The translations under genes and the position numbers were made by a program. Shown here one piece after another: positions 4,605-36,531 of a stretch of 64,000 bases of DNA. A model generated the notes under the pieces. That model saw nothing but the letters and a program-made list of their open reading frames with translations, was not told the origin of the DNA and did no database searches. Every line of letters begins with the position of its first letter. Position 1 is the first letter of the stretch. The stretch is taken from positions 83,557-147,556 of the forward strand of contig CAZLRH010000009.1 of the NCBI GenBank assembly GCA_964562015.1. Direction: 5' to 3'. Origin of the DNA: an uncultured Opitutales bacterium. GTDB taxonomy: Bacteria > Verrucomicrobiota > Verrucomicrobiia > Opitutales > JABDGR01.

Positions 4605-4611
4605 GGGGGCG

Positions 4612-4649
4612 TTTATTATAATAAGCCCGCCGCCCGCGGAAATAAGACA
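4612..4649 (-). promoter_or_regulatory. Putative ECF-type promoter of the 3093-4604 gene
   Basis: Coding strand TGTC-N15-GCGGG-CTTATTATAATAAA, 45 nt before the ATG. The same layout occurs before the other two ECF paralogs. Confidence 0.55.
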
Positions 4650-4699
4650 AAAATCTTCTTTATTCTGGAGATGAGGGATGCCGCCGGCGCGAAATCGTC

Positions 4700-4738
4700 A
4701 AAAAAAAAATCTGCCGAACCCAAACGGGTTCGGCAGAT
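4700..4738 (-). terminator. Rho-independent terminator after the 4768-6264 gene
   Basis: Perfect 13-bp stem ATCTGCCGAACCC-aaac-GGGTTCGGCAGAT next to a 10-A run (U-tract on the minus strand). Confidence 0.85.
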
Positions 4739-4767
4739 GAGGCCAAGTAAGGAACTCGGCGCGAGGG

Positions 4768-6264
4768 TTACGGCGTCTGGTCCGACGACCTGAAGGTCAC
4801 AATCTGCCCGGGGCCGCCTGGCGTGGGAAACGAGCCTGGAGTTGAGCCCGCCGGCAGGGTCTGCGTGGTGATGACGCCGTCTTTGTTCGTCGTCACCGTG
4901 ATGGTGCCATCGGGATTTTTCACGCTTTTGCTGCTGAACTTGCTGGTCGTGAAGACACCGCTCGCTGTGCCCGCCGGATTGGCCAGCATAATCGTCCCGC
5001 TGGGACCGTTGCTGACGGCGCTGCCGGACGAGAAAGTGCCGGGATTGCCACTGCTGCCGCTGATGACCACGGTGGCTCCGCCATTGCTGGAACTCGTGGT
5101 GAAGGTCCCCGAAGCGGGAACGTTGACCGTGCGCGTGGTGCTGACGCCATTTTCCGTTGTGGTGAGGGTTGTGGTTCCTTCCGCCTCTGTCTGGAGGCTT
5201 TGACTGGAAAAATCGAGGGTTCCCTCAGTCGAGGCAGGATTCAAAACGAGCACGCCCTCGGTGACCATGGTTGCAGTCCCGGAATAATCAGGGGAAGGAA
5301 CATAAGCGGAAGCCGTTTCTGTTGCTGAAACCGAAGCCTCGGTTGCGTCAGGGACATTATTGACCGCAGCGGTGACCGGCGCCGCGACTGGGGCCGCCAC
5401 CCGCGGGCCGGCCTGGCGAACAGCCGCAGATTCGGGTGCGGGGGACACCGAGGCGCGGGATTGGATGGCCGGCGGGAGGGCGCCGGATGTGGACGGTTGA
5501 TGCGGCCAAGCGTAGGCGGCAAAACCGGCGACCGCCAAAGTGGCGAGCGAAGCGAGGGCGATTTTTGAGGTAAACATGGATTTAAGGGAGGTTAGAGAAA
5601 GACTCGTGGCTGCGCCTGCGCCGCTCAGCGCCGTGGCGGAAACTTTGGCCGCCAGCCCGAACGGGGCCGGCACGGCGGCGTTGGTATCGAGCGTGGTGGC
5701 GAGCAGGGCCGTGGAAAGCGTGAGCCCCCGTTTCGTCAAAAATCCGCGCAATTTATCCAACGCGCGGGCGACCCGCTTTTGGGCGGTGTCGTCGCTGAGG
5801 CCAAGTTCACGGCCAATGCACTGAAAATCCTGTTGCTGCAAATAACGCAGCACGATGGCGTCGCGGTCCGTGGCATTGAGGCCGTTGAGCGCTTCATCGA
5901 GCACCGGCGCAATGTTTTCCCAGGCAGTGGCGCGGCCGGACTTTTCTTCGAGAGCGTTGATTTCCATAAAAATCCGGTCGCGGGAGCGCCGCCGTTGTTC
6001 CGTACGCACCGCCTTCGCTGCCGTGAAGCAGGTGTGCCGGTGCAGCCAGCCGCCCAAGATTAAGTCGGCAGGCAGGGATCCCGCCTTGCGCGCCAAATCG
6101 GTGAACACGATTTGCGTAACGTCTTGCGCGAGATGGGTGTCGCCGGCGACCAGCCGGCGGGCCGTGGCATGGACGAGCCCGACGTGACGCTCTACCAATT
6201 CCCGAAAGGCTTGGTCGGAGCCTTCACGGGCGTATTGGCGCAGAAGTTGGGTGTCGTCGTTCAT
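4768..6264 (-). CDS. ECF sigma-70 factor fused to a TM helix and a Ser/Thr/Gly-rich extracytoplasmic tail
   Basis: MNDDTQLLRQY..AFRELVERHVGLVHATARR..LAQDVTQIVF and sigma4 (RDAIVLRY..TAQKRVARALDKLR). TM at about aa 235-252. Start placed at ATG 6264 by alignment with the paralogs. Confidence 0.85.
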   Translation of the reverse strand: MNDDTQLLRQYAREGSDQAFRELVERHVGLVHATARRLVAGDTHLAQDVTQIVFTDLARKAGSLPADLILGGWLHRHTCFTAAKAVRTEQRRRSRDRIFMEINALEEKSGRATAWENIAPVLDEALNGLNATDRDAIVLRYLQQQDFQCIGRELGLSDDTAQKRVARALDKLRGFLTKRGLTLSTALLATTLDTNAAVPAPFGLAAKVSATALSGAGAATSLSLTSLKSMFTSKIALASLATLAVAGFAAYAWPHQPSTSGALPPAIQSRASVSPAPESAAVRQAGPRVAAPVAAPVTAAVNNVPDATEASVSATETASAYVPSPDYSGTATMVTEGVLVLNPASTEGTLDFSSQSLQTEAEGTTTLTTTENGVSTTRTVNVPASGTFTTSSSNGGATVVISGSSGNPGTFSSGSAVSNGPSGTIMLANPAGTASGVFTTSKFSSKSVKNPDGTITVTTNKDGVITTQTLPAGSTPGSFPTPGGPGQIVTFRSSDQTP

Positions 6265-6308: not shown

Positions 6309-6447
6309 AGAAATCGCCCCAAACCAGGGACGCCGCCGGCGGCGACCCTACGGTCCAAACGACATAATTTGTAGGCGCCGCTGGCGACGGCCCATGGTCA
6401 CGGCTTCTGTTTCAAAATATAAACCATCCCAGCCTTCCGAGTCAGGC

Positions 6448-7956
6448 TTATCCGCCCACGCCGCCGCGGCCACCACCACCGCCGCCGAAGCCGCCGCCGT
6501 TGCCCGTGCCGCCACGATTGGCGCCCGCCGCCGGTTGGGCTGGAGCCGCGCCTGCGCCAGCATTCGGATCCCACGGGGCCAGGCGGTTGGCATTATTGAC
6601 AAAACCCGCGCCCATGCGGTTGAGGCGGTTAAGGGGACGCGTGTTGGCCGGATCCAGATTGTTGACCCAATCTGAAATCGCCTGTTTTTCATCCGCGGAA
6701 ATGTTGGGGTTCGCCTGCACGAATTTAAGCCCGCTTTGCGGGTCGTTCGCGATTTGGCGCGCAATGACGGAATCAATGATGCGCCCGGTGAGATTGGGGT
6801 CGGAAACGTGGGACGTGGCCCACATCACTGCGGTTTCCGGGTCCACGCGCCCGGCGCTGGTGGCGAAATTCACGACGGCCGGATCAGTGGCGGGAGAGGC
6901 GGGCAGGGCGCCCAGAATTTGCGCGGCGCTATTGAGGTCGTAACGCGTCAACGTGCGAATGGAATTCGCCAGCGCCGTGCCGGGCTGGTCGGTGCCGTTT
7001 TGGAGCGAAGCTTGGTCGAACTGGACGGCCCAGGCCGCGGCGGCCATCGGGTCGTTGCGCGTCCACGCCGCGACGACCTGGTTGCCGAGTTGCGCGCGTT
7101 GGGCCGGGTCGGTCAGGGTGGCCACGTAGTTCGCCGCGTCTGTCGGCGAATTTTGGGCCCAGCGGTTGAGCAACTGGGTGGAGGCGGCGGTCTTGGCGTC
7201 GTCGGGCAGCGTGGAGAACAATTTCACGGCGTCCTCGAATTTGCCGTCATCGGCGAGCGCGTTCGCCACGGCCTGGTAACTCTGGCGCTGCAAATTGCGG
7301 TCCGCCAAGGTCGAGTTGCCAAAGCTGGCGACGATGTCCAGCGCGCCCTGCGGATCCGTCGCGGCCATGCCGCCGAGCGCGGCCCGGTAACGCGCATTGA
7401 TTTGCTGCGGCGGCAGCGCTTCTTTTTCCTGGCCCAGCCAGGCCAGGGCGGCCTTCGGGTCATCCTTGGCCCACGACTTCAAGGCCGTGGCTACGCCCGC
7501 CTCGCGGGCCGACGGGTTGGTGATGTTGCTATGGGCGAGGAGGAAAGTAGACGGCGCTTTTTCGGCCCAGGAGCTGACGAGGGCGGCGAACATGGCGTCG
7601 CGCTGCATCCCGGCCGGCATGTCTTGCAGCGATTGGATGAATTCGGCGTAGTCGTTCGGGTCCACGCTGTCCGCCCAGAGCTTCAGCAACGCCGGATCCA
7701 GCTTGTTCTTATTCGCCAGCATTTCCTGAAAGGTCGGCAGCTTGCCCACCAAGCCGATGGGCGAGCCATCCGCTCCCGGCGCGCCATTGCCGCCGATGCT
7801 CATGGTCGCGCCATGGTCGGTGGAAGACTTGCCGGGTTTGCCGGTGGCGACTTTGCCGGTTTCCGGCGCGTGGTGGGAGCCGGCCCAATAGGAAAGGACG
7901 CTGCTGGCGGCCCAGACGGCGGCGAAGCCGAGGTATTTGAGGGATTTCGAATTCAT
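6448..7956 (-). CDS. Membrane-anchored or secreted helical-repeat protein (W-x3-DP-xAAxxW repeats) with a Gly-rich C-terminus
   Basis: N-terminal hydrophobic segment (MNSKSLKYLGFAAVWAASSVLSYWAG) and about 9 repeats of ~33 aa (e.g. WAKDDPKAALAWL, WTRNDPMAAAAWA). Confidence 0.8.
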   Translation of the reverse strand: MNSKSLKYLGFAAVWAASSVLSYWAGSHHAPETGKVATGKPGKSSTDHGATMSIGGNGAPGADGSPIGLVGKLPTFQEMLANKNKLDPALLKLWADSVDPNDYAEFIQSLQDMPAGMQRDAMFAALVSSWAEKAPSTFLLAHSNITNPSAREAGVATALKSWAKDDPKAALAWLGQEKEALPPQQINARYRAALGGMAATDPQGALDIVASFGNSTLADRNLQRQSYQAVANALADDGKFEDAVKLFSTLPDDAKTAASTQLLNRWAQNSPTDAANYVATLTDPAQRAQLGNQVVAAWTRNDPMAAAAWAVQFDQASLQNGTDQPGTALANSIRTLTRYDLNSAAQILGALPASPATDPAVVNFATSAGRVDPETAVMWATSHVSDPNLTGRIIDSVIARQIANDPQSGLKFVQANPNISADEKQAISDWVNNLDPANTRPLNRLNRMGAGFVNNANRLAPWDPNAGAGAAPAQPAAGANRGGTGNGGGFGGGGGGRGGVGG

Positions 7957-8174: not shown

Positions 8175-9287
8175 ATGAGCTTTGTTTTTTGGCGTCGCCT
8201 ATTGCTCAACATTGCCCTCAGTGGAGGTGCGCTGGCCGCGCTCTCGCCTGGGGTTAGGGCAGTCGTTTCCTACACCCTGACGGATTTGGGGTCGTTGGAC
8301 AATTCCTCGAACCTCTATTCCAGTTTTGCTACTGGCATTAATGCGTCGGGCGAGGTGTCGGGTTATTCCTACACCTCGGTGAGTGCTGGAAGTCACGCCT
8401 TTCTCTATTCCGGCGGCGTGATGTCCGATATCGGCGGGGGGAATAGTGTCGCCAATGGCATCAACGATTCCGGTCAAGTCGTCGGCTACATCACGGGCAT
8501 AGATGGGTTTCATCATGCTTTTCTCTATTCCGCTGGCAATTTAACTGACCTCAGTCCGCAAGTCGGGGTCGACACGATCGCTTATGCCATCAACAACAGC
8601 GGCCAAGTCGTTGGCAAAGGCCCGACTTTTTCCAATTCCTTTTTTTATTCCGGCGGGGTCGGGACTCTCTTCAATACGCTGGGGGCCGCGCGCGCCCTTA
8701 ACGATTCTGGAAATTTCGCCGGCGGGGGCGCCAATTTTGCCTATGTGGTCAATAGTGGAATAATGACGAATTTCGGCACCCTGGCGGGCGGAGGGCCCGC
8801 CCATGGTTACGGCATGAATAATCAAGGCGACGTGGTGGGTGCTGCGGATTTCAGCTTTCCGAGCGCCTACGACTTGATCGTGTATCACAATGGGACGCTT
8901 TTGGATCTGGGCCGCGCTGCTCCCACGGCCGATACCTATGGTTATGATATAAATGCCACGGGCCAAATTGTCGGCGAGTACAGATACACTTCGATGAGCG
9001 GTTTGGTTGACCAAGGTTTCCTTTATGAGAATGGGTCGTTCACCGACATGGATAGCTTACCCATTATCAATCTTGGGACCTGGCACGACATTTTCGCGAC
9101 AGCCATCAATGACAACGGCCAGATCGCGGGCTGGGGTACGGACGGAACCGGACGGACCCATGCCCTCCTTATTTCGCCGGTGCCTGAACCGGCGGCGTTT
9201 GCCTTTGGGGTAACGCTGACGGCCGGGCTGGTTGCATTGAGCAGACGGTATTATTCTCGCGCGGTGACCCGGCGGACTAGTCGTTGA
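8175..9287 (+). CDS. PEP-CTERM surface protein with HAF-type extracellular repeats
   Basis: Signal peptide, repeats such as AxxINxSGxVxG..HAFLYSGGxMxD(L)G, and a C-terminal VPEP motif followed by a TM helix and an Arg-rich tail. Confidence 0.88.
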   Translation: MSFVFWRRLLLNIALSGGALAALSPGVRAVVSYTLTDLGSLDNSSNLYSSFATGINASGEVSGYSYTSVSAGSHAFLYSGGVMSDIGGGNSVANGINDSGQVVGYITGIDGFHHAFLYSAGNLTDLSPQVGVDTIAYAINNSGQVVGKGPTFSNSFFYSGGVGTLFNTLGAARALNDSGNFAGGGANFAYVVNSGIMTNFGTLAGGGPAHGYGMNNQGDVVGAADFSFPSAYDLIVYHNGTLLDLGRAAPTADTYGYDINATGQIVGEYRYTSMSGLVDQGFLYENGSFTDMDSLPIINLGTWHDIFATAINDNGQIAGWGTDGTGRTHALLISPVPEPAAFAFGVTLTAGLVALSRRYYSRAVTRRTSR

Positions 9288-9356
9288 TTTTAGGTGGACG
9301 CTGTTTCGCAAAGAATCTATTTTAAGGCTAGACGGTCCATAAACAGGAAACATGTC

Positions 9357-10346
9357 ATGCCGGCCTTGATTCGCAATGAACTCGTGGAGTCCCTGGTGGG
9401 CCGGCTGTTTGCGGCCTACCGCATCACCGACGTGGAGCAGGTGGCCGCGGCCATGGCCGCATTGATTGAGGGCCGCATCAAAAGCATTACCGCGCGCACG
9501 CCGTGGAATCGGCGCAAGGCCGCCGAACTAACGGACGTGGCGGACCGGTTTGTCCTCGCGCTGGACCAGCGCCTGGCGAAGGAAGGCCCAGCGCACCGCG
9601 CGCTCCTGCTGCCGCGGCGCAAGGCCTTGTCCGCGCAGCAATTTTACCTGAGCGAATGGGCCGCCGGCGGAAACTACGCGCAGGGTCGTTGGCTCGACGC
9701 CGGCCAGTGGGCCGCGCATTTCAGCACCGTGCGCATGACGGTGCCGTTGTTGCTGATCCTCGCCTTTTTTGTCGTGGTGGAATTGGGCGGTGGGCGCCTG
9801 AGGCCGGAATTTTTCTGGGCGGATGTGCTGCTCTGGCTGCTGGCGTGGGGGTTTATGGAAATGTATACATTTCAAACTTTCAAAATGGTTTTCCAGCAAC
9901 GCCGGTTTGACGCGCTGCTGCGGGGAGATCTCGCGCGCTTTGTGGAATGCCAGCGGCAGATTGCCTCTGAGGACGGACCGTGGTTCGCGCTGAATCGGGA
10001 ATTTCCCATCTGGTGCGTGCGCGGGCTCGCGGTGCTGGCCCTGTTGTTTCTATTGCTAAAGGGTGACCCGCTGAACGGGCTCGCTGCCAGCGAATCCGCG
10101 ACCTTGGCCGCCGCCCTGGCCGCCCAAGACACCACTTTGCAACGCCATGGTGAGGCGGTTGCTGAACTCACCGCCAAACTGGACGACCTCGCCGCTGATT
10201 TGCCGGCCGAGGCGGTGCCGGATGACGATTTCCCCGCCTACGATTTTGCAAGCTACGGCGTCGCAGTCCCGAACATGCGCGTTGTCGCTGGTGGCAGTTC
10301 GGGTGGGAGTTATACCATTGGACGTGTGACCGTGACCGTGCGGTAG
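9357..10346 (+). CDS. Hypothetical membrane protein (about 3 TM segments)
   Basis: Long ORF with hydrophobic stretches (VPLLLILAFFVVV, VLLWLLAWGFM, LAVLALLFLLL). No family recognised. Confidence 0.6.
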   Translation: MPALIRNELVESLVGRLFAAYRITDVEQVAAAMAALIEGRIKSITARTPWNRRKAAELTDVADRFVLALDQRLAKEGPAHRALLLPRRKALSAQQFYLSEWAAGGNYAQGRWLDAGQWAAHFSTVRMTVPLLLILAFFVVVELGGGRLRPEFFWADVLLWLLAWGFMEMYTFQTFKMVFQQRRFDALLRGDLARFVECQRQIASEDGPWFALNREFPIWCVRGLAVLALLFLLLKGDPLNGLAASESATLAAALAAQDTTLQRHGEAVAELTAKLDDLAADLPAEAVPDDDFPAYDFASYGVAVPNMRVVAGGSSGGSYTIGRVTVTVR

Positions 10347-10406
10347 GGTGGGCGCAAGGGTTCGTCCACGGATTGATTTTAGACCTAATCTAAATCGGCC
10401 AGCCCT

Positions 10407-12341
10407 TCACTGGCCGATATTCGCATGGCCCAAGATTTGTTTTTTTGCGTCGTCGGACAAACTCGTCTGATTCAGCCAGCTTGTCGCTGCCGTTGGATCA
10501 GTTCTCGTCCAATCGCGAATGACCCGGTCAATGGTGTTGGTCCGTGTCTGTTCATCGGTAAGAGACTCGGCCCAAGGCGCTGCCGCCGCTGGATTTATCG
10601 GGGACAGCACACTGACATAAGCTCTGACCGCGTTCTGTTGGGCAAAACTGGGCGGCAATGTTTTGAGCCATTCCTCAGCGGCGGCAGGGTCGGCATCCAC
10701 CCATTTGTGCATAACTCCCAGCGCGGGGCCAAATTGATTTTGGCCGGCATTGGGCAGCGTGGCGATAAAGCCCATCGCCTGGGTTGGTTCCATCACTGGG
10801 AGGATCCCGGTCATAGCCGCGGATTTGTCGGAGTCGTTTGGCAACGCATTGGCCCAATTAAACGCCGCCTGGGCGTCGGATTTGCTCAGAGTGGCACCAA
10901 GCGACATCAGTGACATCGTACGTTGGTCGCCCGCCGGCAGCGCAAGTGTTTGTTTAATCGCCGCATGGGGGTCCTTTTTCGCCCAGCTGGCCATGAGGGA
11001 GGCCAAAGTTACGGGCGACGCATCCGGCCCGGCTAATTGCACCGCAACTTCCGGGTTGGTCTGGGCCAAGATATCCAAGAATTGCGACATCATCTCGTCG
11101 CGAGCCGAGCCGTGTGGAAGCTGCTGCACCCAGGCCCAGGCTGTGCTTGGATCTTTTTGCGCCCATGCTTCAAGAATCTGGCGCACTGCGATTTGGCGGG
11201 CCCGGGTTCCTTCAATTGTTTGTGCATATGCAAGTGCGGCGGCCGGGTCTGTGCGCACCCAGCGGTCGAGGATTTCCCTCATCAACAAGTCGCGTTCGGA
11301 GCCGCCTTCATGGTCGGCGTAGGCCAGCGCCGCGGCCATGCTTTGATTATCCAGCTGGTCGAGGAATTGGTAGAAAGCCTGCTTCGATGCGTCCGAATAC
11401 GCGCCGCTTTTCATCTCCACAATGACTTCCGCCAGCGCCGCCTGAATTTCGTCGAGGTTGGATGCCTCGGCGACCGATGCACTTTGTCCCATGGATGCGG
11501 ATGGCGCCGACCGGGGCCCGAGCTTCTTGACGGTGGAATTCCGCTCGTCGAGCCGCGCCTGCAGTTGGGCAATCTCGCGGTTTTGGGAAACGATGAAGGC
11601 GGCGGCCGAGACGGCCACGGCGGCGACAAGGATGGTTTTGATTTTCATGGTCATAAAAAAGATTTTCCAAACGGCGTGCGCCAATCCGCCCGCGCTTGTC
11701 GAGCCGGCCAAGGAGGCGCCTGTAACCTTGGCCGTTAAACCGGCCGGCAAGGGCGTGGCAGCCTGAACGGTAATCGCTGTGGCCAGGAGAGCCCCCGTGG
11801 TCGTCACGCCCTGCCGGGCGAAATGCCGGCGCATTTTTTCCAAGGCGCGTTCAACTCGCTTGTTTACCGTATTTTCATCCAGATGGAGAATCGCGGCCAC
11901 TTCGCGGTAGCTTTTGCCTTGGAAAAAGCGCAAAAGCACGGCATCGCGATCAGTTTCTCCGAGTTGGCCCACCGCCTCATCCAGAACGGGCCGCAGTTGT
12001 TCCAAACTTATTTCCTGAACTGGGTTGGGTTCATGCATGGCGACAGCTTTTTGTTCACGCACCTGGCGGCGCCATTGGCTACGCAGCGTTTTATGGGAGA
12101 GATAACGCGTGCTGGTGTGCAGCCATCCCGCCAAAGTTTCATGCCCGGACAACACACGGGCCTTCCGTGCCAAGTCGGTGAACACTCCTTGCGCTACGTC
12201 TTCGGCCAGATGAGCGTCACCAGCCAACAGACGGAAGGCGGTGCTGTAGACCAGGCGCAGGTAGCGTTGCACCACTTCGGCAAAGGCGGCCTCGTCGCCG
12301 GTTTCGGCATACTCGCGCAAGAGCTCGTGGTCTGGAGTCAT
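10407..12341 (-). CDS. ECF sigma-70 factor fused to a TM helix and W-DP helical repeats
   Basis: MTPDHELLREY..AFAEVVQRYLRLVYSTAFR..LAEDVAQGVF and sigma4 (RDAVLLRFFQGKSYREVA..KRVERALEKMRR). TM at about aa 236-252, then about 9-10 W-x3-DP-xAAxxW repeats. Confidence 0.88.
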   Translation of the reverse strand: MTPDHELLREYAETGDEAAFAEVVQRYLRLVYSTAFRLLAGDAHLAEDVAQGVFTDLARKARVLSGHETLAGWLHTSTRYLSHKTLRSQWRRQVREQKAVAMHEPNPVQEISLEQLRPVLDEAVGQLGETDRDAVLLRFFQGKSYREVAAILHLDENTVNKRVERALEKMRRHFARQGVTTTGALLATAITVQAATPLPAGLTAKVTGASLAGSTSAGGLAHAVWKIFFMTMKIKTILVAAVAVSAAAFIVSQNREIAQLQARLDERNSTVKKLGPRSAPSASMGQSASVAEASNLDEIQAALAEVIVEMKSGAYSDASKQAFYQFLDQLDNQSMAAALAYADHEGGSERDLLMREILDRWVRTDPAAALAYAQTIEGTRARQIAVRQILEAWAQKDPSTAWAWVQQLPHGSARDEMMSQFLDILAQTNPEVAVQLAGPDASPVTLASLMASWAKKDPHAAIKQTLALPAGDQRTMSLMSLGATLSKSDAQAAFNWANALPNDSDKSAAMTGILPVMEPTQAMGFIATLPNAGQNQFGPALGVMHKWVDADPAAAEEWLKTLPPSFAQQNAVRAYVSVLSPINPAAAAPWAESLTDEQTRTNTIDRVIRDWTRTDPTAATSWLNQTSLSDDAKKQILGHANIGQ

Positions 12342-12384: not shown

Positions 12385-12701
12385 ATAAAGTTCAGGTTTG
12401 GATCGATAATCGCCGCACGGACCTGGACTACGGTGGTGCCGTCGTTTACGCCTGATGAAGCCCGCTGACTTCAACAAGGCGGGGATGGTCGTCGCTATCC
12501 ACTTGCTGAAATTTGCGGCTAAAAGGTGCTCCAACCCCGCCCTTAGGCCCGCCGAAAGATTGCAATTCCACGCTTGATGACCGCCGGGGGATGCCTCACT
12601 CTGGTCGGAAACCCGGAGCGATTCAGACCGAAGAGGGGGCATTTGTACTGCAACCCTGCCACTGAAGAGTGACGGCCCAGCGGCCCCCCAAAGCAGATTA
12701 C

Positions 12702-14672
12702 ATGACGGACCAAGACACCTCCGCGCCCTTGCCGGCGCCGGAACCCACCGGTTCCCACGACCCGAGTCAGGCCAGCCTTGACTTGAGCGTGCTCAAAAAC
12801 ATTTCGTTTGGCCCGGACTGGAGCGCAACGCCCAGCACGGAAGCCCTCGTCCGCAAAGTCGGCGGCCGGGGCGGCCGGGACGACGGCCGCGACCGTGGCG
12901 GCCCGCCCGGAGGCCGTGATGGTCCGCCCCGGCGCGACCGTCGGCCCGCCCGCCCGCCCGCGGGTCCCGGTGGCGGCTTCGAAAATCGCGCCCGTCCGGC
13001 GGGCGACAACGGCCCCGGCTTCTCCGGCCCGCCCATGGATCGTGGCGGCGACCGCGGTGGTCCCCGTTTTGATCGCGGCATGCGCCAGGATGGCCCCCGT
13101 GGCCGGCGCGATACGCCTCCGCCGTTCCAGCCCACGCTCAGCGTGCTGTTTTACCCGGACGACAATGCCTTTCGCGCGCTGACCAAGGCCATCCGCACCT
13201 CCTGCCGCACTTATGAATTGTTCGAGGTGGCCCATCTCATTTTGGGCAAACCGGAGCGTTTTGTGGTTGTGCTCCAGCCGCCGCCCGACCGCGACGGCAA
13301 GCCCGGGCAGGTTTTTATCGCCCAGCCCGATCACCTGCCGTTCGAGACCGAGGAAGATGCCGTCAACCACGTCTTTGACCAACACCTCGAAAAATTCTGC
13401 GACACCGAGACCGTGGACGTGGAACCGCCCAAGGGCAATTTCGTGGGCATCAGCAAATGCGGCCTCACGGGAGAATTGATCGGGCCGCCGAATTACCACC
13501 GCTATCCCCAGTTGCTCCGCGAGCACCATGCGCGCCGCCTGGGCCGCACGCCCTACGAACGCTTTGCCTCGCGGGTGGAATTGGTGAAGGAGCCCGAGGC
13601 CATCGCCGCCTGGCTCGAAAAGATGAAAAAGGCCACGCGCTACAAGCTCAAGGAGCCCATCGCCGGCGCGCCGGAGTTTTTTGAAACCGTGGACGCCGCC
13701 CGCCAGTTTTTGCTCCAGCATAAGAAGGACCTCATCGTGCGGGCGCTGGAGACGGCGCGTTACCCCGGCAAGATGATGGACCAGTTTCCGCAGGGCGACA
13801 TCCGCCGTTCCGTGGAGGCCGTGCTCGACCAGCAGCGGCGCTTCCCGCTCGACACCGCGAACAATTTGCGCGGCCGGTTGCGGCGCATGAAGTTCAATTT
13901 GTATAAGAAGGGCTCGAAGGGCGTTTCGTACGTGTGCGCCGTCAAGCGCCGCTTCCGCGATCCGCAAACCGTGCTGGCCGACCACGTGAACAAGTTGATC
14001 TCGTTCCTGGAACAGCACCCGATGATCGTGGTTTCCCGCCTGGCGCACGAATTTTTGGGTTTGCCCCTGCCGCCCACGCCGGTGGCGGCGGCTCCCGCTG
14101 CGATCGCGGCGGTGCCTGCGCCGGTCGCGGAAGTTCCCGCGCCCGTGGCCGAGGCTCCGGTGGCGACATCGGGAGAAACGCCTGCGCCGGTCGCGCCCGA
14201 AACGGCGGCTGCGCCGGTGGGCGAAAATGGTACGGCTCCGGTCGCTGCCACAGAAGCGCCGAAGAGCGAACCCGCTCCCGCCGTGCCTGCCGCGTCGCAT
14301 CTCTCTCCCGAACAACAGCAGCAATTCCGCGAATTGGTTATTAATGTGAAGTGGCTGGTGAGTTCGGGCTACGTCGTCGAGTACGGCGACGGCAAATTGT
14401 TTGCGCTGCCCGTCGTGGAACCGCCGAAGGTCAAGGCCGCCGAGGGCGGTGCCACGCCTGCGACTGGCGAAGAATCCGACGAACTCGGCGAAACCGAGGA
14501 CACCGACGAAGGTGAAGCCGCGCTCTTGTCCGGCGAAGCCCCGGAGATTCCCGGCGGCGACGAAGCGGGGCCGTTGCTCGGCACGCCCGTGGGCGAGCCT
14601 GCGGCAACGTCCGCTGCCGCCGTCGAGCCGCCGGTCGCGACGCCTGCGTCCGAATCGTCCCCCAGCGCTTAG
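12702..14672 (+). CDS. Hypothetical protein with an RGG/Pro-rich N-terminus, a globular core and an acidic Ala/Pro-rich C-terminus
   Basis: Strong GC-biased coding pattern. Core at about aa 140-460 is non-repetitive (CGLTGELIGPPNYHRYP, LRGRLRRMKFNLYKKG). Function not recognised. Confidence 0.75.
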   Translation: MTDQDTSAPLPAPEPTGSHDPSQASLDLSVLKNISFGPDWSATPSTEALVRKVGGRGGRDDGRDRGGPPGGRDGPPRRDRRPARPPAGPGGGFENRARPAGDNGPGFSGPPMDRGGDRGGPRFDRGMRQDGPRGRRDTPPPFQPTLSVLFYPDDNAFRALTKAIRTSCRTYELFEVAHLILGKPERFVVVLQPPPDRDGKPGQVFIAQPDHLPFETEEDAVNHVFDQHLEKFCDTETVDVEPPKGNFVGISKCGLTGELIGPPNYHRYPQLLREHHARRLGRTPYERFASRVELVKEPEAIAAWLEKMKKATRYKLKEPIAGAPEFFETVDAARQFLLQHKKDLIVRALETARYPGKMMDQFPQGDIRRSVEAVLDQQRRFPLDTANNLRGRLRRMKFNLYKKGSKGVSYVCAVKRRFRDPQTVLADHVNKLISFLEQHPMIVVSRLAHEFLGLPLPPTPVAAAPAAIAAVPAPVAEVPAPVAEAPVATSGETPAPVAPETAAAPVGENGTAPVAATEAPKSEPAPAVPAASHLSPEQQQQFRELVINVKWLVSSGYVVEYGDGKLFALPVVEPPKVKAAEGGATPATGEESDELGETEDTDEGEAALLSGEAPEIPGGDEAGPLLGTPVGEPAATSAAAVEPPVATPASESSPSA

Positions 14673-15835
14673 TTTTTGGTTGGTGCGTTCGGTTGGACCG
14701 TGGTCACCGCTGGCGGCGAAGTCACGCCCGGCAGCAAGCCCGCGTGCACGAGGCCGTCGAGCAAGACTTCCGCATGAATTTGCTGCCCGAGCACCGAGGG
14801 GTGGGGATCTTGCTCCGAAAGCGTGAGGGGCGGATGCCGGGCATCGGCCAGGTGCAGGCGCGCCGCTTCCTCATCGAGCCGCGTTTCCGCATCGAAACAC
14901 GGGATTTTCAATTCGTCGCAGAGGTCGCGGAGTTGCCGCGGCAGACGGTACGAACCAAAAACCACCAGGCGAAATCCGTCCGTTTGCGCGAGATTTTGCA
15001 AAGTGCGAATGCCACCGAGGACCGCCGGCCAGCCGACCAAGGCGCGATACTCCGGCGGCACCTGCTCCGGATCGCCGACGAAACCGGCGGAGTTTTCCGC
15101 ATGCGGGGCCTCTTCGAGAAACGGGTCCGCAAAACGCGGCCGCCCGCGCACGACATTTTCCGCAAATTCCCACAAGAGTGAACGGCCCGGCGACCACGGG
15201 CTGCGCGGCGCGAGGAGGAAATTCGGCAGCGTCAAATCGTTGCCGATGAAATGCACGATCACCACATCCGGTTTCCACGCGCGCCAGCGGTTCTCGAAGG
15301 CCGCCGCTTCCATCGCGGTGTTGTAGCCCGGCACGGCGGTGTTGACGGTTTCCCACCGGGTCGCCGGATAAGCCGCGTTGAGCGTAGCCGCGGTGCGCGC
15401 AAGGTACGTCTCGTCGTTACCCACGCCCCAACCGAACATCACCGAATCCCCCAACCCCAGGATGCGAAAGTCGCCGGGGCTGCGCGGGCGGGGTACCAAG
15501 GCGCCGCGATAACCATCGGCGTTGATAGTCACGTTCGCGTTTTGAAAAATCACCTGCTGGTTCGGAATGAATTCAAAAATCACCCGCGCGTCCGCGCTCG
15601 CGCGCAGCATCTGGCCGAGCTTCACCGTGGCGCCCGGCGGCGGGGGCGCGACATCCGCATGGCCAAGGTTGGCGAGCGCGGCCGTTTCGCGGCGGTTGGC
15701 CAGCCAGGCCACGACGCGCAACCCGAATTCCGCCACCAGCAGCGTCAGCAACACCGTGCCCAGCGCCAGCGCGAGCAGGGCTTTCCGGGAGGCGGCGCGC
15801 GGCGCGCGGCCGGGAGTGGCGGACGGGATGGGCAT
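14669..15835 (-). CDS. SGNH/GDSL hydrolase family protein with an N-terminal TM anchor
   Basis: Block I LGDSVMFGWG, block II NTAVPGYNT, block III GND, block V DPHPS; LLVAEFGLR anchor. Confidence 0.85.
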   Translation of the reverse strand: MPIPSATPGRAPRAASRKALLALALGTVLLTLLVAEFGLRVVAWLANRRETAALANLGHADVAPPPPGATVKLGQMLRASADARVIFEFIPNQQVIFQNANVTINADGYRGALVPRPRSPGDFRILGLGDSVMFGWGVGNDETYLARTAATLNAAYPATRWETVNTAVPGYNTAMEAAAFENRWRAWKPDVVIVHFIGNDLTLPNFLLAPRSPWSPGRSLLWEFAENVVRGRPRFADPFLEEAPHAENSAGFVGDPEQVPPEYRALVGWPAVLGGIRTLQNLAQTDGFRLVVFGSYRLPRQLRDLCDELKIPCFDAETRLDEEAARLHLADARHPPLTLSEQDPHPSVLGQQIHAEVLLDGLVHAGLLPGVTSPPAVTTVQPNAPTKN

Positions 15836-29973: not shown

Positions 29974-32160
29974 TTACGCCAGATCAATGGTGCGGGCCGC
30001 AGCCTCGCCGCTGAGGGCCGCGCCTTCGAGCGTCGCGGGCAGGCCGGTGTCCGTCCAGTCGCCGGCCAGGAAAAAATTCTTCCACGGCGTACGCGGGCCG
30101 GGGCGGAAGCCTTCGGCGGCGGGCGTGGCGGCGAAGGTCGCGTCCTTCGTCTTGATGACCAATTCGCGGCTGAATTTGGCCTCGCTGACCGCCGGGAAGA
30201 AACGCGCGAGCTCAGTGCGCAGCGCGGCCAAAATCTCGTCGCTCTTGCGATTGAGCCAGGTCTCGCCCGCGGCGCTCATTGTGACTGCGTAGAGAAATTC
30301 CTTGCCCTGTCTCTCGGTCGGCAAATGGTCCGAACGGTCGAAGACCCAATGGAAGGGTGAATCGAGCAGGCCCGCGAAGGGCACGTCGAACAAGGGCCGG
30401 TCGCACAGCAAATGGATATTCAAAATCCCCGCCGGCTTGAGTTCCTGAAGTTGCGTGCGCAAGGGCGCGTCTTCCGGCAGTACCGCCCGCAGCGCCATCC
30501 ACGGCAGCGCGGAAATAAAATAATCCGCCGCGATGGTTTCGCCGCGTGAGGTTTCGGCCGACACCACTTTGCCGCCGGCAAAATTTAATTGGGAAAGTTG
30601 CGTGCCGTAATGCAAAGAACCTCCCGTGGCCGCCAGGAACCGCTCCGCCTCGGGCCGGAACAAGTCGCTCAACCCGACGCGGGAAAAGAAAATCGCCGAG
30701 TCTCCACGTTTCCCAAAAAGCGAGCGCCGCAAGGTTTCGTGCAGCAAGCGCGCGCTCGCGGTGGCGAGCGGTTCGTTCAACGCCGCGATGCAAAACGGTT
30801 CCCAGAGCGCGCGGATCGCCCCGGGTGTCTGGCCGTTTTCCTCCAGCCACGCCGCGGCGGTCTGATTCGCATTCGGCCGCCAGCCCCAGCGCATGAACAG
30901 GCCCAGTTTCAAAATGGCGGTGCGGTCTTCGACGTTGAGCGCGCCAAACCCGAGCAGCGCGGTCAGCAAGTGCAAGGGCGCAGGGAGTTCACCAGCTTGC
31001 ATGCGCGACCGTTTCCCGCCGGGCTCAACATAGTCGACCGCCAACCCCGCCGCTTCGGCGAGACGGTCGCGCGTGCCTAATCGATCCAACAGGCGCAGAA
31101 ATCCGTGGTAGCAACCCATGACGATATGCTGGCCATTATCCAACGTCAGTCCGCTAGGGGCGTCGCGCAAACTCGAGGCGCGGCCCCCCGGAAAAGTTTT
31201 CGCCTCGTAAACATCGACGGCAAAGCCCTGCTCGGCCAGTTGCATTGCCGCCGTGAGGCCCGCGACCCCCGCGCCAAAAACCGCCACGCGGCCCGGCTGC
31301 GCCAGTCGTTGGCCCGTCCGCCGCCGCGCGCCCAGCGTGCGGGCGACCAGTTGAAATTTCCTGAATTTGCTCAAACGGACGCGTTGTTCCGTAAGCTGAA
31401 AATTTCCCGCCGCGATTTTTTCCAAAATATCCTCATAAAAGGCGGCCATGATCAACGCTGCCTGCAAGCGTGGCCGGTCCGCTTCGGGCAGCAAACGGCG
31501 GGCCTTGTGGAAATAATGTTTCGCGCGGAAATACTGGAGGCGAAACAGCCGCGCGCACGCCGGCTGCGCATTCGGTTCTTCAAGGTCGCTCGCGGACACC
31601 CCGCAGGCGGTCATTTCGTCCTGCGGCAGGTAGATGCGCCCGTACAGGCGCTTGTCCTCCACCACGTCGCGCAAAATATTGGTCAACTGCAAGGCATAGC
31701 CGAGGTTTTCCGCAAATTCCGGGCAACGCGCATCACGGCAGCCGAAAATCTTGATGGACACCAGCCCCACTGCGGAGGCGACACCGTAGCAGTACTGGCG
31801 CAATTCCTCAAAATTCGCGTAGGTACGCGGCGCGATGTCGTGCGCCACCCCGGCCACGATTTCATGCAAATCTTTCACCACGACGCCAAAACGTGCCACG
31901 ACGGGCGCCAATTCCCGCGCCAGCGGCTGCGCGGGTGTCCGCCCATTCGCGATGGCGTCGAGGTCCGTCCGCCACGCATTGAGCGCGGCCGTTTTGGCGG
32001 CGGCCGGCGTGGCCGGGTCGTCCGAAATATCGTCCACCTGCCGGCAAAAGTCATAAAAAACCGACATGGCCGCGCGTTCCTCCGGTTGCAACGAGAGGAA
32101 GGAAAAGGCGAGGTTGGACTGGCGTCGCGCCTCGACGGCGGTGGACGGCACGGAAGACAT
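29974..32160 (-). CDS. hpnD-hpnE: Fused presqualene diphosphate synthase (HpnD) and hydroxysqualene dehydroxylase (HpnE)
   Basis: N-half: SNLAFSF..YDFCRQVDDISDD, YCYGVASAVG, LQLTNILRDV.ED..GRIYLP. C-half: VAVFGAGVAGLTAA (FAD), GGRASS, LDNGQHIVMGCY, FLAGDWTDTGLPATLEGAALSG. One uninterrupted 728-aa ORF. Confidence 0.88.
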   Translation of the reverse strand: MSSVPSTAVEARRQSNLAFSFLSLQPEERAAMSVFYDFCRQVDDISDDPATPAAAKTAALNAWRTDLDAIANGRTPAQPLARELAPVVARFGVVVKDLHEIVAGVAHDIAPRTYANFEELRQYCYGVASAVGLVSIKIFGCRDARCPEFAENLGYALQLTNILRDVVEDKRLYGRIYLPQDEMTACGVSASDLEEPNAQPACARLFRLQYFRAKHYFHKARRLLPEADRPRLQAALIMAAFYEDILEKIAAGNFQLTEQRVRLSKFRKFQLVARTLGARRRTGQRLAQPGRVAVFGAGVAGLTAAMQLAEQGFAVDVYEAKTFPGGRASSLRDAPSGLTLDNGQHIVMGCYHGFLRLLDRLGTRDRLAEAAGLAVDYVEPGGKRSRMQAGELPAPLHLLTALLGFGALNVEDRTAILKLGLFMRWGWRPNANQTAAAWLEENGQTPGAIRALWEPFCIAALNEPLATASARLLHETLRRSLFGKRGDSAIFFSRVGLSDLFRPEAERFLAATGGSLHYGTQLSQLNFAGGKVVSAETSRGETIAADYFISALPWMALRAVLPEDAPLRTQLQELKPAGILNIHLLCDRPLFDVPFAGLLDSPFHWVFDRSDHLPTERQGKEFLYAVTMSAAGETWLNRKSDEILAALRTELARFFPAVSEAKFSRELVIKTKDATFAATPAAEGFRPGPRTPWKNFFLAGDWTDTGLPATLEGAALSGEAAARTIDLA

Positions 32161-32217
32161 GAACGTGAAGAAAGGTGAAAAGTGTAAAGTAAAAGAGGGA
32201 AAAGAAAAGGGCTGAAG
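32161..32217. repeat. Purine-rich degenerate ~7-nt array directly 5' of the hpnD-hpnE start codon
   Basis: GAACGT GAAGAAAGGT GAAAAGT GTAAAGT AAAAGAG GGAAAAG AAAAGGG; more degenerate than the other arrays. Confidence 0.45.
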
Positions 32218-32232
32218 CGGAACCCGCCCTTG

Positions 32233-33105
32233 CTACCGGCTAATCAACGCTTTGAGCAGGATGCGCACTTTGTCGCCCTTGCCGACCTTGGGCCGCGCGC
32301 GCAACGTATCACAATCTTGGGCAATGACTTTGTCGAGAATGGCACTGCCGCCCAGCCACGTCACGCGGATTTCCAGGCTCAACGGAAAGGGCAGGGAGCG
32401 CGGCAGGGGCCGGCCTTGGGCAAACAGCCCGCGTGTGCGCTCGACCTGAAACCGCAGGCACGCCTTAAATCCCGCCGAGGCCGCGGGCGCCGCGAAGTCG
32501 GCCTCCGTCACCCCAAACCGCGACCAGTCCTCCTGGGGCACATACACGCGTTGGTCCTTGCGCCAGTCCACCGCCACATCCTGCCAGAAATTGGCCAGTT
32601 GCAACGCCGTGCAAATCGCATCCGATTGCGCAAAGCGTTCCTCATCACGAAAGCCGTGGAGCAAAAGCACCAGCCGGCCCACGGGATTCGCACTGCGCCG
32701 GCAATAATCGAGCACGCTCGCAAAGGTCGCATAGCGTTTCACCGTCACGTCCTGGCTGAAGGCGGACACCAGGTCGGTGAACAGCGAAAGAGGTAATTGG
32801 TGCTCATAGCGGGTGTCGGCTAGTGCGGTAAAGATCCAGTCCCATTCCACCGGCACCGGTTGACTACGGTCGCTGGCGAGCAAGGCATTTTCGAACGCGC
32901 GCAACTGGTCCAGACGCTCCTGCGGCTGGCGGCGGTTCGGGCCTTCATAATCCTCGTCCGCCATGTCATCCGCCGTCCGGGCGAAGGCATAAACTGCCGC
33001 GACTGCCGGTTGCAGGCGCCGGGGCACGAGCCGGGCCACCGGAAAGTTTTCATAGTGGTCCCGGGTCAGTTGCAGGCAGCGGGCATAGGCCTCGTCGAGT
33101 TGCAT
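32233..33105 (-). CDS. hpnC: Hydroxysqualene synthase HpnC
   Basis: HYENFPVA, VYAFARTADDMADE, YCRRSANPVGRLVL, SDAICTALQLANFWQDV, ELRxTWLGG-like C-terminus. Confidence 0.92.
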   Translation of the reverse strand: MQLDEAYARCLQLTRDHYENFPVARLVPRRLQPAVAAVYAFARTADDMADEDYEGPNRRQPQERLDQLRAFENALLASDRSQPVPVEWDWIFTALADTRYEHQLPLSLFTDLVSAFSQDVTVKRYATFASVLDYCRRSANPVGRLVLLLHGFRDEERFAQSDAICTALQLANFWQDVAVDWRKDQRVYVPQEDWSRFGVTEADFAAPAASAGFKACLRFQVERTRGLFAQGRPLPRSLPFPLSLEIRVTWLGGSAILDKVIAQDCDTLRARPKVGKGDKVRILLKALISR

Positions 33106-33288: not shown

Positions 33289-34635
33289 GTGCCCATTTTC
33301 TTTTCTCAACGGAATGCCGCCAAGCTGGGGTTGGTGGCGCTGGTTTTGGCCTGGCCGATGACCCTCTGGGGCCCGGCAAATCCAAACCCGAACTTCCAGC
33401 AGGGCCCCACCAATCCGTTCATTTTTGACGGGGCCAAGGCCGACGGTCGTCTGGTGCCGGAAGGTGGCGTCGTTCATATCGCCGCCCCCGCCGGAATGCA
33501 GGGTCCGGCCATTGTCGCCAAGTTGCTGGTCAAGACCGACGATTGGGTCGAGGCTGGCCAGCTTTTGGCGGTGCTGAATACCCAGCCTTTATTGGAGGCG
33601 CAGTACAACGTGGCCTTGGGCGAGCAAGCCGCCGCCACCTCCGCCCTCGTCCAGACCAAGGCCGCTGAAACCCGGGTCAATGCCGAGATGCAAATGCAGT
33701 TGGCGGATTTTGAGGCCCGCGCGGCGCTTGCCGATGCCAACGCCCACAAGGCCGCCGAAAGCAGCCGCCTTGCCCTCGAATCCGCCCAACGCGACCAAGC
33801 CGCCGCGCAAACTGCCCTCGCGGCCGGTCAGCGCTTGGAGCCGGTGGTCATTGCCAATGCCACCGCCGCCATCGGGGTCGTGCAAGTGCAGGTCGACATC
33901 ATTCCCAAAGGCCGGGATGAACATAAAGTGGCAGCAGCCCAACTCGAGCAAGCCAAGGCCGGCGCCGACCGTGCCAAACTGGAAATGGCCGGGCAGATCG
34001 AGCAATTGCAGGCGCAGGCGGATTTGGCTGCTCTGCGCTTGAAACAGGCCCAGGCTAATTTGATTTTGGAACCTGCGCCCAGCGATGCCTCCCTGCTTGC
34101 GCCCGTGCAAATCGAGGCCCGCTCAGCCAAGGCCGCCTTTGATTTGGAGCATATTTTAGTGGATGCCGCCAAAGCCGAGCAGGCCGCCAATGTCGCGGGC
34201 GCCCAAGGTCGTCTGGCCGCGGCGGACACCGCCGTCGCCCTGGCCAAGGCCCAATTGGCGCTGGCGGAAATTCACGCGCCGTCGGCTGGGCGCGTCCTCG
34301 TCGTGCGCGCCAAGCCGGGTGAGGCCGTGGGTCCCGCCGGCATTTTGGATTTGGGCGACACGCGGACGATGTACGTGGATGCGGAAGTGCCTTACAGCGA
34401 TATCCGGGGCGTGCGCATCGGCCAGCCCGCGCTGGTCTCGGGTGACGCCTTTCCCGAAAACCTCAAGGGCAAGGTCGTGGCCGTCAACGCCATCATTGGC
34501 AACAGCACCATCACGAGCACCGACGTGCTGAAATTTTCCACCGATGCCGTGGTCCTGGTCCGGGTGATGCTCGACAATCCCAGCCAGGTTTCCAATCTCG
34601 TCAACGGCCAGGTCACGGTGCAAATTAATCCATGA
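33289..34635 (+). CDS. DevB-type membrane fusion (periplasmic adaptor) protein
   Basis: GRLVPEGGVVHIAAP, VAKLLVKTDDWVEAGQLLAVL, long coiled coil, IHAPSAGRVL, AEVPYSDI..VRIGQ. Confidence 0.82.
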   Translation: MPIFFSQRNAAKLGLVALVLAWPMTLWGPANPNPNFQQGPTNPFIFDGAKADGRLVPEGGVVHIAAPAGMQGPAIVAKLLVKTDDWVEAGQLLAVLNTQPLLEAQYNVALGEQAAATSALVQTKAAETRVNAEMQMQLADFEARAALADANAHKAAESSRLALESAQRDQAAAQTALAAGQRLEPVVIANATAAIGVVQVQVDIIPKGRDEHKVAAAQLEQAKAGADRAKLEMAGQIEQLQAQADLAALRLKQAQANLILEPAPSDASLLAPVQIEARSAKAAFDLEHILVDAAKAEQAANVAGAQGRLAAADTAVALAKAQLALAEIHAPSAGRVLVVRAKPGEAVGPAGILDLGDTRTMYVDAEVPYSDIRGVRIGQPALVSGDAFPENLKGKVVAVNAIIGNSTITSTDVLKFSTDAVVLVRVMLDNPSQVSNLVNGQVTVQINP

Positions 34636-35837
34636 TGCGGGCGGCGCGGCGTGTCGGAGTCCTGTTGCGCGAACGGTTTTTTCCGCTCGGCATTCCCCTC
34701 GCATGGCGGCAACTGGTGGCCGAAAAAAAACGTTTCGCCGCCGCGGTGGCCGGCATCACTTTTGCCGTGACCATGATGCTGTACCAGATGGGCCTCGAGT
34801 CCGCGTTGTTTGACCAGGTGGTCGCGCCCCTGCTGCAAATGAACGGCGATATTGTGCTCATCAGCCCCCAGTACGAATATTTCGGCATCAGCCGCGAATT
34901 CCCGCAGACGCGCCTCACCCAGGCCTCCTCCCTGCCCGAGGTGTTCGACACCGCGGCGTTGTTGCAGGGCACGCTGCCGTTTAAAAATCCGCAAACGGGC
35001 CGTGACCGCGACATCTTCGTCATGGCGTTCAACCCGTCCGATTATCCGTTTACCAATCCGGACATCGTGAACCACCAGGCGCTGTTGAAGCGGGACCGCA
35101 TGGTGTTGTTCGACACCCTGTCCCGCGCCGATTACGGACCTATTGGCGAACTCTTTGCGCAAAAAGGCGAAGTCACCACGGAGATCGCGGGCAAGAGCGC
35201 GAAGGTCGTTGGCGTCTTCGAAATGGGCCCGACGTTCGCCGCCGACGGCAACCTGCTCATGGGGCGCGACGCCTTTCTTGCCCTCTGGCCGAGCGCTCGC
35301 GAAAATCAGATCAGCATCGGCTTGTTGCAACTAAAGCCCGGCGCCGACCCCAACGCCGTCGCGCAGAAATTGCGCACCAAGCTCACCGCCGGCGACGTGG
35401 ACGTGTACACGCGCGACGAATTCATCCAGAAGGAAAAAACATACTGGTCCCAGCGCACACCCATCGGCTTCGTCATCGGCGCATCGCTGCTGGTCTCGCT
35501 GATTGTCGGCGCCGTCATCGTTTACCAGATTTTGTACACCGACGTGACGGACCACCTGCACGAGTACGCCACGCTGAAATCCATCGGCTTCACCGACGGC
35601 TTTTTCGTCAAGCTCGTGCTCCAGGAATCGCTCATCCTTTCCATCCTCGGCTTCGTGCCGGGCACCGGCCTCGCGGCCCTGCTGTATTGGCTGACGCAGA
35701 CGCTCGGCCACATGCCGACGAAGCTCTATGCCATCAATGTGCTGGGCGTTTTCGGCCTCTCCTTGATGATGTGCCTGCTGGCCGGCGGCCTGGCCACCCG
35801 CAAGCTCCGCCAGGCGAACCCCGCCGATATTTTTTAA
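34632..35837 (+). CDS. DevC-type ABC exporter permease (FtsX-like)
   Basis: PLAWRQL..KKRFAAAVAGITFAVTMMLYQMG, VIVYQILYTDVTDHLHEYATLKSIG, RKLRQANPADIF. Confidence 0.9.
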   Translation: MMRAARRVGVLLRERFFPLGIPLAWRQLVAEKKRFAAAVAGITFAVTMMLYQMGLESALFDQVVAPLLQMNGDIVLISPQYEYFGISREFPQTRLTQASSLPEVFDTAALLQGTLPFKNPQTGRDRDIFVMAFNPSDYPFTNPDIVNHQALLKRDRMVLFDTLSRADYGPIGELFAQKGEVTTEIAGKSAKVVGVFEMGPTFAADGNLLMGRDAFLALWPSARENQISIGLLQLKPGADPNAVAQKLRTKLTAGDVDVYTRDEFIQKEKTYWSQRTPIGFVIGASLLVSLIVGAVIVYQILYTDVTDHLHEYATLKSIGFTDGFFVKLVLQESLILSILGFVPGTGLAALLYWLTQTLGHMPTKLYAINVLGVFGLSLMMCLLAGGLATRKLRQANPADIF

Positions 35838-35841
35838 TCCC

Positions 35842-36531
35842 ATGCCTGCCGACGCCATCATCCGCGTGCGCGACTTGCACCACTCCTTCACTGAAGGGAT
35901 GGCGGCCAAGGAGGTCCTGCATGGCATCGACGCCGATTTTGCGCGCGGGGAAATCTGCCTCATCATGGGCCCTTCCGGCTCGGGCAAGACCACGCTGTTA
36001 AAACTCATTGGCGGCCAGCGCGGCCTGCAAAAAGGCAGCATCGTCGTGGACGGCCGCGAACTCGCCGGCGCGAAGCAGCGCGACCTCGTCGCCGTGCGGC
36101 GCAAGATTGGTTTCATCTTCCAAGGCCACCACCTGCTCGATGCGCTCACGGTCTGCCAAAATGTGCAGATGCCGTTGAGTTTTGACCCCGCGCAAACGGG
36201 CGCCACCTCGCGCGCCGCCGCGCTCGAGATGCTCCGCCGCGTGGGGCTGGAGGATCATGCCGAGAAAAAACCCGAGCACCTTTCCGGCGGCCAGAAGCAG
36301 CGTGTGGCCATCGCCCGTGCCTTGATTCACAAGCCCTCCATTATTCTGGCGGACGAACCGACCGCCTCGCTCGATAAAAAAACGGGCCGCGAAGTCGTGG
36401 ATCTCCTCCAGCACCTCGCCAAGGAAGTCGGCTGCACCATTGTGTTAGTCACCCACGACAGCCGCATCATGGACGTCGCCGACCGCCTCATCCACCTCGA
36501 GGACGGCCGCCTGGCCGCGCTGGAGGGTTAA
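35842..36531 (+). CDS. DevA-type ABC ATP-binding protein
   Basis: GPSGSGKTT, LSGGQKQRVAIARAL, ILADEPTASLD, LVTHD. Confidence 0.92.
   Translation: MPADAIIRVRDLHHSFTEGMAAKEVLHGIDADFARGEICLIMGPSGSGKTTLLKLIGGQRGLQKGSIVVDGRELAGAKQRDLVAVRRKIGFIFQGHHLLDALTVCQNVQMPLSFDPAQTGATSRAAALEMLRRVGLEDHAEKKPEHLSGGQKQRVAIARALIHKPSIILADEPTASLDKKTGREVVDLLQHLAKEVGCTIVLVTHDSRIMDVADRLIHLEDGRLAALEG

Follow-up and report, generated by a model that had tools for sequence, protein, structure and literature searches.

A single gene in a 64,000-nucleotide stretch of DNA from an uncultured Opitutales bacterium of the phylum Verrucomicrobiota (assembly GCA_964562015.1, contig CAZLRH010000009.1, positions 83,557 to 147,556; hereafter the window) is, judged from its sequence, hpnD joined to hpnE, which unites in one predicted protein the enzymes for steps one and three of squalene formation in bacteria. 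This route leads from farnesyl diphosphate to presqualene diphosphate, then to hydroxysqualene and finally to squalene. The D-E fusion is the standard inherited hpnD/hpnE architecture in the class Verrucomicrobiae (Opitutales, Puniceicoccales-type isolates, Methylacidiphilales and Verrucomicrobiales), and the protein in the window is an additional member of a large, ancient fusion family that is present in databases and for which we found no description in the literature. We consider it very probable that the protein is a bifunctional enzyme that, together with HpnC, supplies squalene for hopanoids, and that its two parts were fused once by loss of a stop codon and integrated thereafter.

The fused open reading frame (ORF) at 29974..32160 on the minus strand encodes 728 amino acids from an ATG start to a TGA stop, which lies inside the end coordinate. 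A first-pass annotation of the window had described it as a single 728-residue frame without internal stop, as borne out by the ORF list, and as a natural HpnD-HpnE fusion, which agrees with our Pfam, NCBIfam and motif results showing both domains in one frame with intact-looking halves. The N-terminal half matches the SQS_PSY family (PF00494, residues 14-267, 217.7 bits) and the C-terminal half the Amino_oxidase family (PF01593, residues 299-725, 161.5 bits). At the level of NCBIfam, the HpnD (presqualene diphosphate synthase) domain covers residues 12-276 (31333..32127, minus strand) and positions 4-265 of the 267 positions of profile TIGR03465, while the HpnE domain, a hydroxysqualene dehydroxylase dependent on flavin adenine dinucleotide (FAD), covers residues 292-725 (29986..31287, minus strand). 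The latter aligns to positions 1-428 of the 430 positions of TIGR03467, a near-complete profile, and scores 410.9 bits, above the curated equivalog cut-off of 283.05. Full-length homologues found in a protein cluster search cover 95-100% of the query.

The score of the HpnD half is a point against this assignment, as it reaches 270.8 bits with TIGR03465 and thus falls 8 bits short of the cut-off of 278.6; other fused HpnD halves also lie slightly under it (P0125 and P0148 with 259.9 and 253.3 bits, respectively). One half of the protein could be degenerate or repurposed, for instance by making no presqualene diphosphate or by leading to a product other than squalene, but we regard this as very unlikely. 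The TIGR03465 match spans almost the whole profile, and the HpnD half prefers it by far over the models for HpnC (163.9 bits) and CrtB (123.6 bits). When HpnC is used as the root of the tree, a branch with a Shimodaira-Hasegawa-like approximate likelihood ratio test (SH-aLRT) value of 100 divides the HpnD from the HpnC group, and the HpnD domain from the window sits inside the verrucomicrobial HpnD clade (SH-aLRT 96). Orthology with HpnD also agrees with the retained C-D-E synteny. The residues of the catalytic motifs are furthermore identical in all 197 fused sequences aligned. They comprise the first Asp-rich motif DDISD (D43, D44 and D47; residues 43-47, 32020..32034), the second Asp-rich motif DVVED (D165 and D169; residues 165-169 inside NILRDVVED, 31654..31668) and the FAD-binding GxGxxG motif in the form GAGVAG (G296-G301, 31258..31275, with G296, G298 and G301 invariant), all read on the minus strand, as well as E319 downstream of GAGVAG, which is followed by GGR at residues 325-327. 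Such a pair of Asp-rich motifs binds Mg2+ and diphosphate in the head-to-head prenyl synthase fold. The fused gene is also the only HpnD-like and the only HpnE-like gene of the genome, while HpnC, a squalene-hopene cyclase and HpnH are present. To judge by the motifs, both halves of the fusion look active.

The recurrence of the fusion junction was looked for in databases and found. In a search of proteins clustered at 90% identity, which returned 872 matches, the best 120 are without exception full-length two-domain proteins of 695-820 amino acids with 45-77% identity and 95-100% query coverage. They include isolates of Ruficoccus, Rubellicoccus and Cerasicoccus and metagenome-assembled genomes (MAGs) labelled Opitutales, Puniceicoccales, Methylacidiphilales and Verrucomicrobiales. 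Scoring two candidates per genome in a sample of 401 genomes drawn evenly from the phylum, we found an uninterrupted full-length match in 11 of them, belonging to five families. An exhaustive HMMER search of 1.84 billion representatives at 50% identity, of which the top 150 were classified, contained 36 full-length fusions, 21 of them of the verrucomicrobial type and 15 in a second tier with 32-37% identity. The named members of this second tier are Planctomycetota, namely Pirellulales and Planctomycetaceae MAGs and the isolate Telmatocola sphagniphila. No triple C-D-E fusion occurs among these top 150 representatives. The fusion is hence not a singular oddity, being widespread in Verrucomicrobiota and recurring in Planctomycetota. 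An assembly or sequencing artefact, in which a missed stop or an indel merged two genes, has a negligible probability, since hundreds of independent assemblies, complete isolate chromosomes among them, show the same uninterrupted frame and the same connector length; agreement in both features across well over a hundred independent assemblies excludes an artefact in this one.

For a view across all phyla, one genome per GTDB species was scanned and the best 80 loci were taken as the sample, a locus being classed as fused if its HpnD and HpnE matches lie in a single frame with no stop between them and as split otherwise. All seven verrucomicrobial loci with both domains are fused, whereas the 72 loci from other phyla are all split and all arranged in C-D-E order. 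Among them are loci from Acidobacteriota, Actinomycetota, Pseudomonadota, Ignavibacteriota, Chloroflexota, Binatota, Elusimicrobiota, Gemmatimonadota and two Planctomycetota MAGs. At 22 of these 72 loci the genes hpnD and hpnE are in frame with each other, with nothing but stop codons in between; 19 of the 22 have exactly one stop, and there a single substitution would fuse the genes. As the two genes were neighbours in the ancestral C-D-E order and are so often in the same frame, fusing steps 1 and 3 of the pathway, which are not consecutive, needs no special explanation.

The origin of the fusion was traced in trees of the separate domains. In the HpnE-domain tree (161 rows), the 40 verrucomicrobial fused rows fall into one clade with an SH-aLRT value of 100, and the HpnD-domain trees are concordant, with values of 97 and 96 for the verrucomicrobial clade. 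The only other row within the verrucomicrobial HpnE clade (P0139), classed as split, proved to be a fragment cut short at its N-terminus, beginning at query residue 311, and was rejected as a true split gene; no reversion to split genes was detected inside this clade, either in the HpnE tree or at the loci from all phyla. The planctomycete fusions form a separate clade of the HpnE tree (SH-aLRT 94) that is nested among Actinomycetota, Chloroflexota and Acidobacteriota, and a further fused protein, P0142, is placed within Acidobacteriaceae. Well-supported branches of the HpnE tree force at least five state changes. By these phylogenies, there was one fusion event in Verrucomicrobiota, with independent ones in Planctomycetota and in one Acidobacteriaceae-like lineage, the single verrucomicrobial origin following from the one clade in the trees of both domains and from the agreement in connector lengths.

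One Opitutales genome (G258) carries split hpnC-hpnD-hpnE genes (locus L022, G258:C46:205500-210216), with hpnD and hpnE in one frame and a single TAA between them, and a cyclase gene adjoining this cluster at C46:201139-203067. We considered this locus as a fission of the verrucomicrobial fusion and rejected the idea, as both halves nest in Acidobacteriaceae; their position makes horizontal transfer or a binning error more likely than fission.

The two domains of the fused protein are joined by a connector of 27 residues (residues 269-295, 31276..31356, minus strand; FQLVARTLGARRRTGQRLAQPGRVAVF), which is basic and lies between the invariant residues K268 and G296. The short basic linker that the first-pass annotation had pointed out, ARTLGARRRTGQRLAQPG, is recovered as residues 273-290 (31291-31344) inside this connector. 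Among 137 sequences of verrucomicrobial-type fusions, the K268-G296 spacing amounts to 27 residues in 99 and to 28 residues in 25, together 124 of 137, and the net charge of the connector is always basic, ranging from +2 to +10. The length of 27-28 residues is maintained across verrucomicrobial lineages down to about 38-45% identity, and the spacing is variable, at 35-82 residues, in the non-verrucomicrobial fusions. An AlphaFold2 prediction of the whole chain gave a mean predicted local distance difference test (pLDDT) score of 94.3 and a predicted template modelling (pTM) score of 0.93, the high pTM resting on a 97-sequence alignment made only of fused sequences. The connector region is modelled with pLDDT values of 87-90 as a helix (265-278), a coil (279-290) and the first Rossmann strand (291-295). 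Since a pTM of 0.93 for a two-domain chain indicates a confident prediction of how the domains are placed relative to each other, the D-E protein is predicted to form a rigid two-domain unit. In this predicted model, the HpnE half finds its closest structural match in rice phytoene desaturase (5mog; target-normalised TM-score 0.86). Plant phytoene desaturase sits at the membrane surface and has a hydrophobic tunnel for its substrate.

The fusion might also be neutral, meaning that a stop was lost between two co-transcribed genes and the enzymes continue to act as if apart, with no HpnC docking or channelling and with 1:1 co-expression as the only consequence; we hold this to be a serious possibility, if a somewhat improbable one. 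Several of our own results weigh on its side and against functional integration. At all 72 split loci hpnD and hpnE are already adjacent in C-D-E order, many of them in the same frame as described above, and D-E fusions have repeatedly formed independently, with the long and variable linkers seen outside Verrucomicrobiota; recurrent fusions together with same-frame split loci imply that fusions form easily and need not bring a kinetic advantage. In Methylacidiphilales-type genomes of 2.2-2.5 Mb, hpnC is unlinked from hpnDE, and the composition of the alignment behind the pTM score counts in the same direction. A neutral fusion is, however, at odds with a connector fixed at 27-28 residues in most verrucomicrobial sequences, with the confident AlphaFold2 domain placement, with the lack of any return to split genes within the verrucomicrobial clade and with the existence of all three pairwise fusions in the pathway. 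This evidence argues for structural integration of the two domains, without proving a kinetic benefit.

The pairwise fusions comprise, besides D-E, the C-D fusions P0185 and P0248 and one apparent HpnC-HpnE fusion. This protein, P0197 (754 amino acids), matches TIGR03464 with 249.6 bits at residues 5-280 and TIGR03467 with 411.3 bits at residues 317-740, and in the planctomycete-type HpnE clade its sister is the HpnD-HpnE fusion P0210. With C-E, C-D and D-E, all three pairwise combinations exist, which constitutes Rosetta-stone evidence that the three enzymes associate, and is not evidence of channelling. An HpnC-HpnDE complex, as proposed in the first-pass annotation, is a reasonable assumption that is backed indirectly by the rigid predicted D-E unit, the fixed connector length and these fusions. 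Real substrate channelling by such a complex seems doubtful to us. Equally tentative is the broader idea that HpnC, HpnD and HpnE form one physical squalene complex in bacteria generally, with the repeated, independent pairwise fusions as its Rosetta-stone evidence. The verrucomicrobial D-E protein, with its predicted rigid D-E interface and fixed basic connector, would then be the naturally stabilised core of this complex, and would pass presqualene diphosphate to HpnC and receive hydroxysqualene in return with neither being released.

In the bifunctional enzyme that we favour, the HpnD domain would convert two farnesyl diphosphates into presqualene diphosphate, the separate HpnC would carry out the middle step from presqualene diphosphate to hydroxysqualene, and the HpnE flavoprotein domain would reduce hydroxysqualene to squalene. 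hpnC and the fused gene are probably located on the same transcript, and the squalene formed would be turned into hopanoids by the squalene-hopene cyclase and HpnH that are encoded elsewhere in the genome. Historically, the neighbouring genes hpnD and hpnE presumably lost the stop codon between them early in Verrucomicrobiota, this being the simplest route, and the fusion would have been inherited since, while the domains would later have become one structurally integrated unit via the basic connector of 27-28 residues. Such a rigid unit may keep the first and the last active sites in a fixed geometry close to the membrane, it would guarantee a 1:1 dosage of HpnD and HpnE, and it may offer HpnC a docking surface on which the lipophilic intermediates are passed on locally.

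The rest of the genome, which comprises 4.43 Mb at 96.7% completeness and includes the window on contig C9, fits a role of the fused gene in hopanoid formation. It holds just two SQS_PSY genes, hpnC and the fused gene, and the fused gene is the only one that scores above the HpnE cut-off. A squalene-hopene cyclase (668 bits, cut-off 431) is encoded beside HpnH (518 bits) on contig C3; as this is the sole cyclase match of the genome, the initial remark that the window contains no squalene-hopene cyclase was correct. With cyclase and HpnH present and no other HpnD or HpnE encoded, squalene is needed and the fused gene is its only route. Use of the squalene for C30 carotenoids was considered and rejected, since the genome holds no CrtI/CrtN-family gene above cut-off, which leaves hopanoids as the likely sink. 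In the cyclase region (L024, contig C3, 180000-199000), the cyclase gene at 9740-11695 lies near hpnH at 6400-7686, and the neighbouring genes encode a CcrM-like DNA methyltransferase (4081-5349) and, on the minus strand, a CckA-like hybrid histidine kinase (12519-15239); the ORFs at 5381-6151 and 8553-9641 are without NCBIfam match.

The same association was seen in 20 sampled genomes, where all 12 with hpnD and hpnE also have HpnC (286-349 bits) and a cyclase (635-718 bits) above the cut-offs, and of the eight with HpnD only, none has HpnC and three have a cyclase. A lone HpnD-like gene of about 280 amino acids occurs in about 60 of the 401 Verrucomicrobiota genomes (L114-L133), without HpnC and often without cyclase. 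This is consistent with the published observation that many Verrucomicrobia keep hpnD alone. Of 21 such lone HpnD genes, 19 share a clade with the fused HpnD domains (SH-aLRT 96), and those at L128 and L129 belong to a different synthase lineage. The lone HpnD genes may or may not be truncated fusions.

Within the window, hpnC (hydroxysqualene synthase, 290 amino acids) lies at 32233..33105 on the same strand, 72 nucleotides upstream of the fused ORF, and scores 314.2 bits with TIGR03464, above the cut-off of 250.45. It had been described from the outset as a separate upstream gene, and both its position and its profile match confirm this. In the Opitutales-type loci hpnC is found directly upstream of hpnDE, and it has this position at L005, L006, L008 and L023 as well. 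The spacer between hpnC and hpnDE (32161-32232, 72 nucleotides) is strongly pyrimidine-rich on the coding strand (CTTTTCTTTTCCCTCTTTTACTTTACACTTTTCACCTTTCTTCACGTTC) following a weak hairpin. A scan for promoters and terminators around the operon yielded nothing above chance, with terminator sites no more frequent than expected. Divergently from hpnC, the plus strand encodes an HlyD-type membrane-fusion protein, a MacB/FtsX permease and an ATPase of the ATP-binding cassette type (33289-36531). This exporter was considered as a conserved partner and rejected, as it is not beside hpnC at other fused loci within the flanks examined.

Fused proteins of this kind are plentiful in GenBank and RefSeq, where they are named 'hydroxysqualene dehydroxylase HpnE'. 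That the NCBI name mentions HpnE only can be attributed to the HpnD half scoring slightly below its model cut-off. As a consequence for annotation, surveys of squalene and hopanoid genes can overlook HpnD, or arrive at wrong counts for hpnD and hpnE, in Verrucomicrobiota and Planctomycetota. We found no paper describing a D-E fusion, the only fusion described being C-D (PMC5462960), in a search that did not extend to Pan et al. 2015. Evolutionary surveys treat three separate families and leave fusions unmentioned (PMC7306690, PMC9907078), and a genomics paper on Methylacidiphilales lists hpnCDE only (PMC9543262). Nor did we find a biochemical characterisation of the verrucomicrobial fused proteins in the literature. 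The fusion leaves the current understanding of the pathway unchanged and, being common in public data, is a fairly ordinary find. We know of no solved structure of HpnD or HpnE. For enzymology, the fused and apparently rigid HpnD-HpnE protein is a handy single-chain object for structural work and a natural construct for testing if the three steps to squalene in bacteria are carried out by a complex; for engineering, it cuts the squalene pathway to two genes.

The three-protein HpnC/HpnD/HpnE squalene pathway and its chemistry were reportedly established by Pan et al. in 2015 (ACS Cent Sci 1:77). The system in the window resembles it in the three families involved, in the C-D-E order, in the expected chemistry and in a product that goes to squalene-hopene cyclase, and differs from it in that steps 1 and 3 are located on one 728-residue chain with a 27-residue basic connector, with only HpnC remaining separate. 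Planctopirus limnophila has hpnC, hpnD and hpnE as separate genes (PMC9907078). A natural fusion of adjacent squalene-pathway genes has been described as a lineage trait before, in the form of fused HpnC-HpnD in Acidobacteria subdivision 2, some Actinobacteria and some Alphaproteobacteria (Sinninghe Damste et al. 2017, PMC5462960). It is similar to the present case in this respect, whereas it joins the consecutive steps 2 and 1, and thus two synthase-fold domains instead of a synthase and a flavoprotein. The HpnD-HpnE fusions of Planctomycetota match the protein studied here in their two domains and in domain order, but they form a separate clade in both trees, have linkers of 35-82 residues and are only 32-37% identical, and are best read from these sequence comparisons as independent fusion events. 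The fusions of other Verrucomicrobiota, for instance those of Ruficoccus sp. ZRK36, Ruficoccus amylovorans, Rubellicoccus peritrichatus, Cerasicoccus spp. and of Methylacidiphilales and Opitutales MAGs, share architecture, connector length, motifs and clade with the protein from the window and differ from it by sequence divergence only, the nearest being 75-77% identical over 100% of the length.

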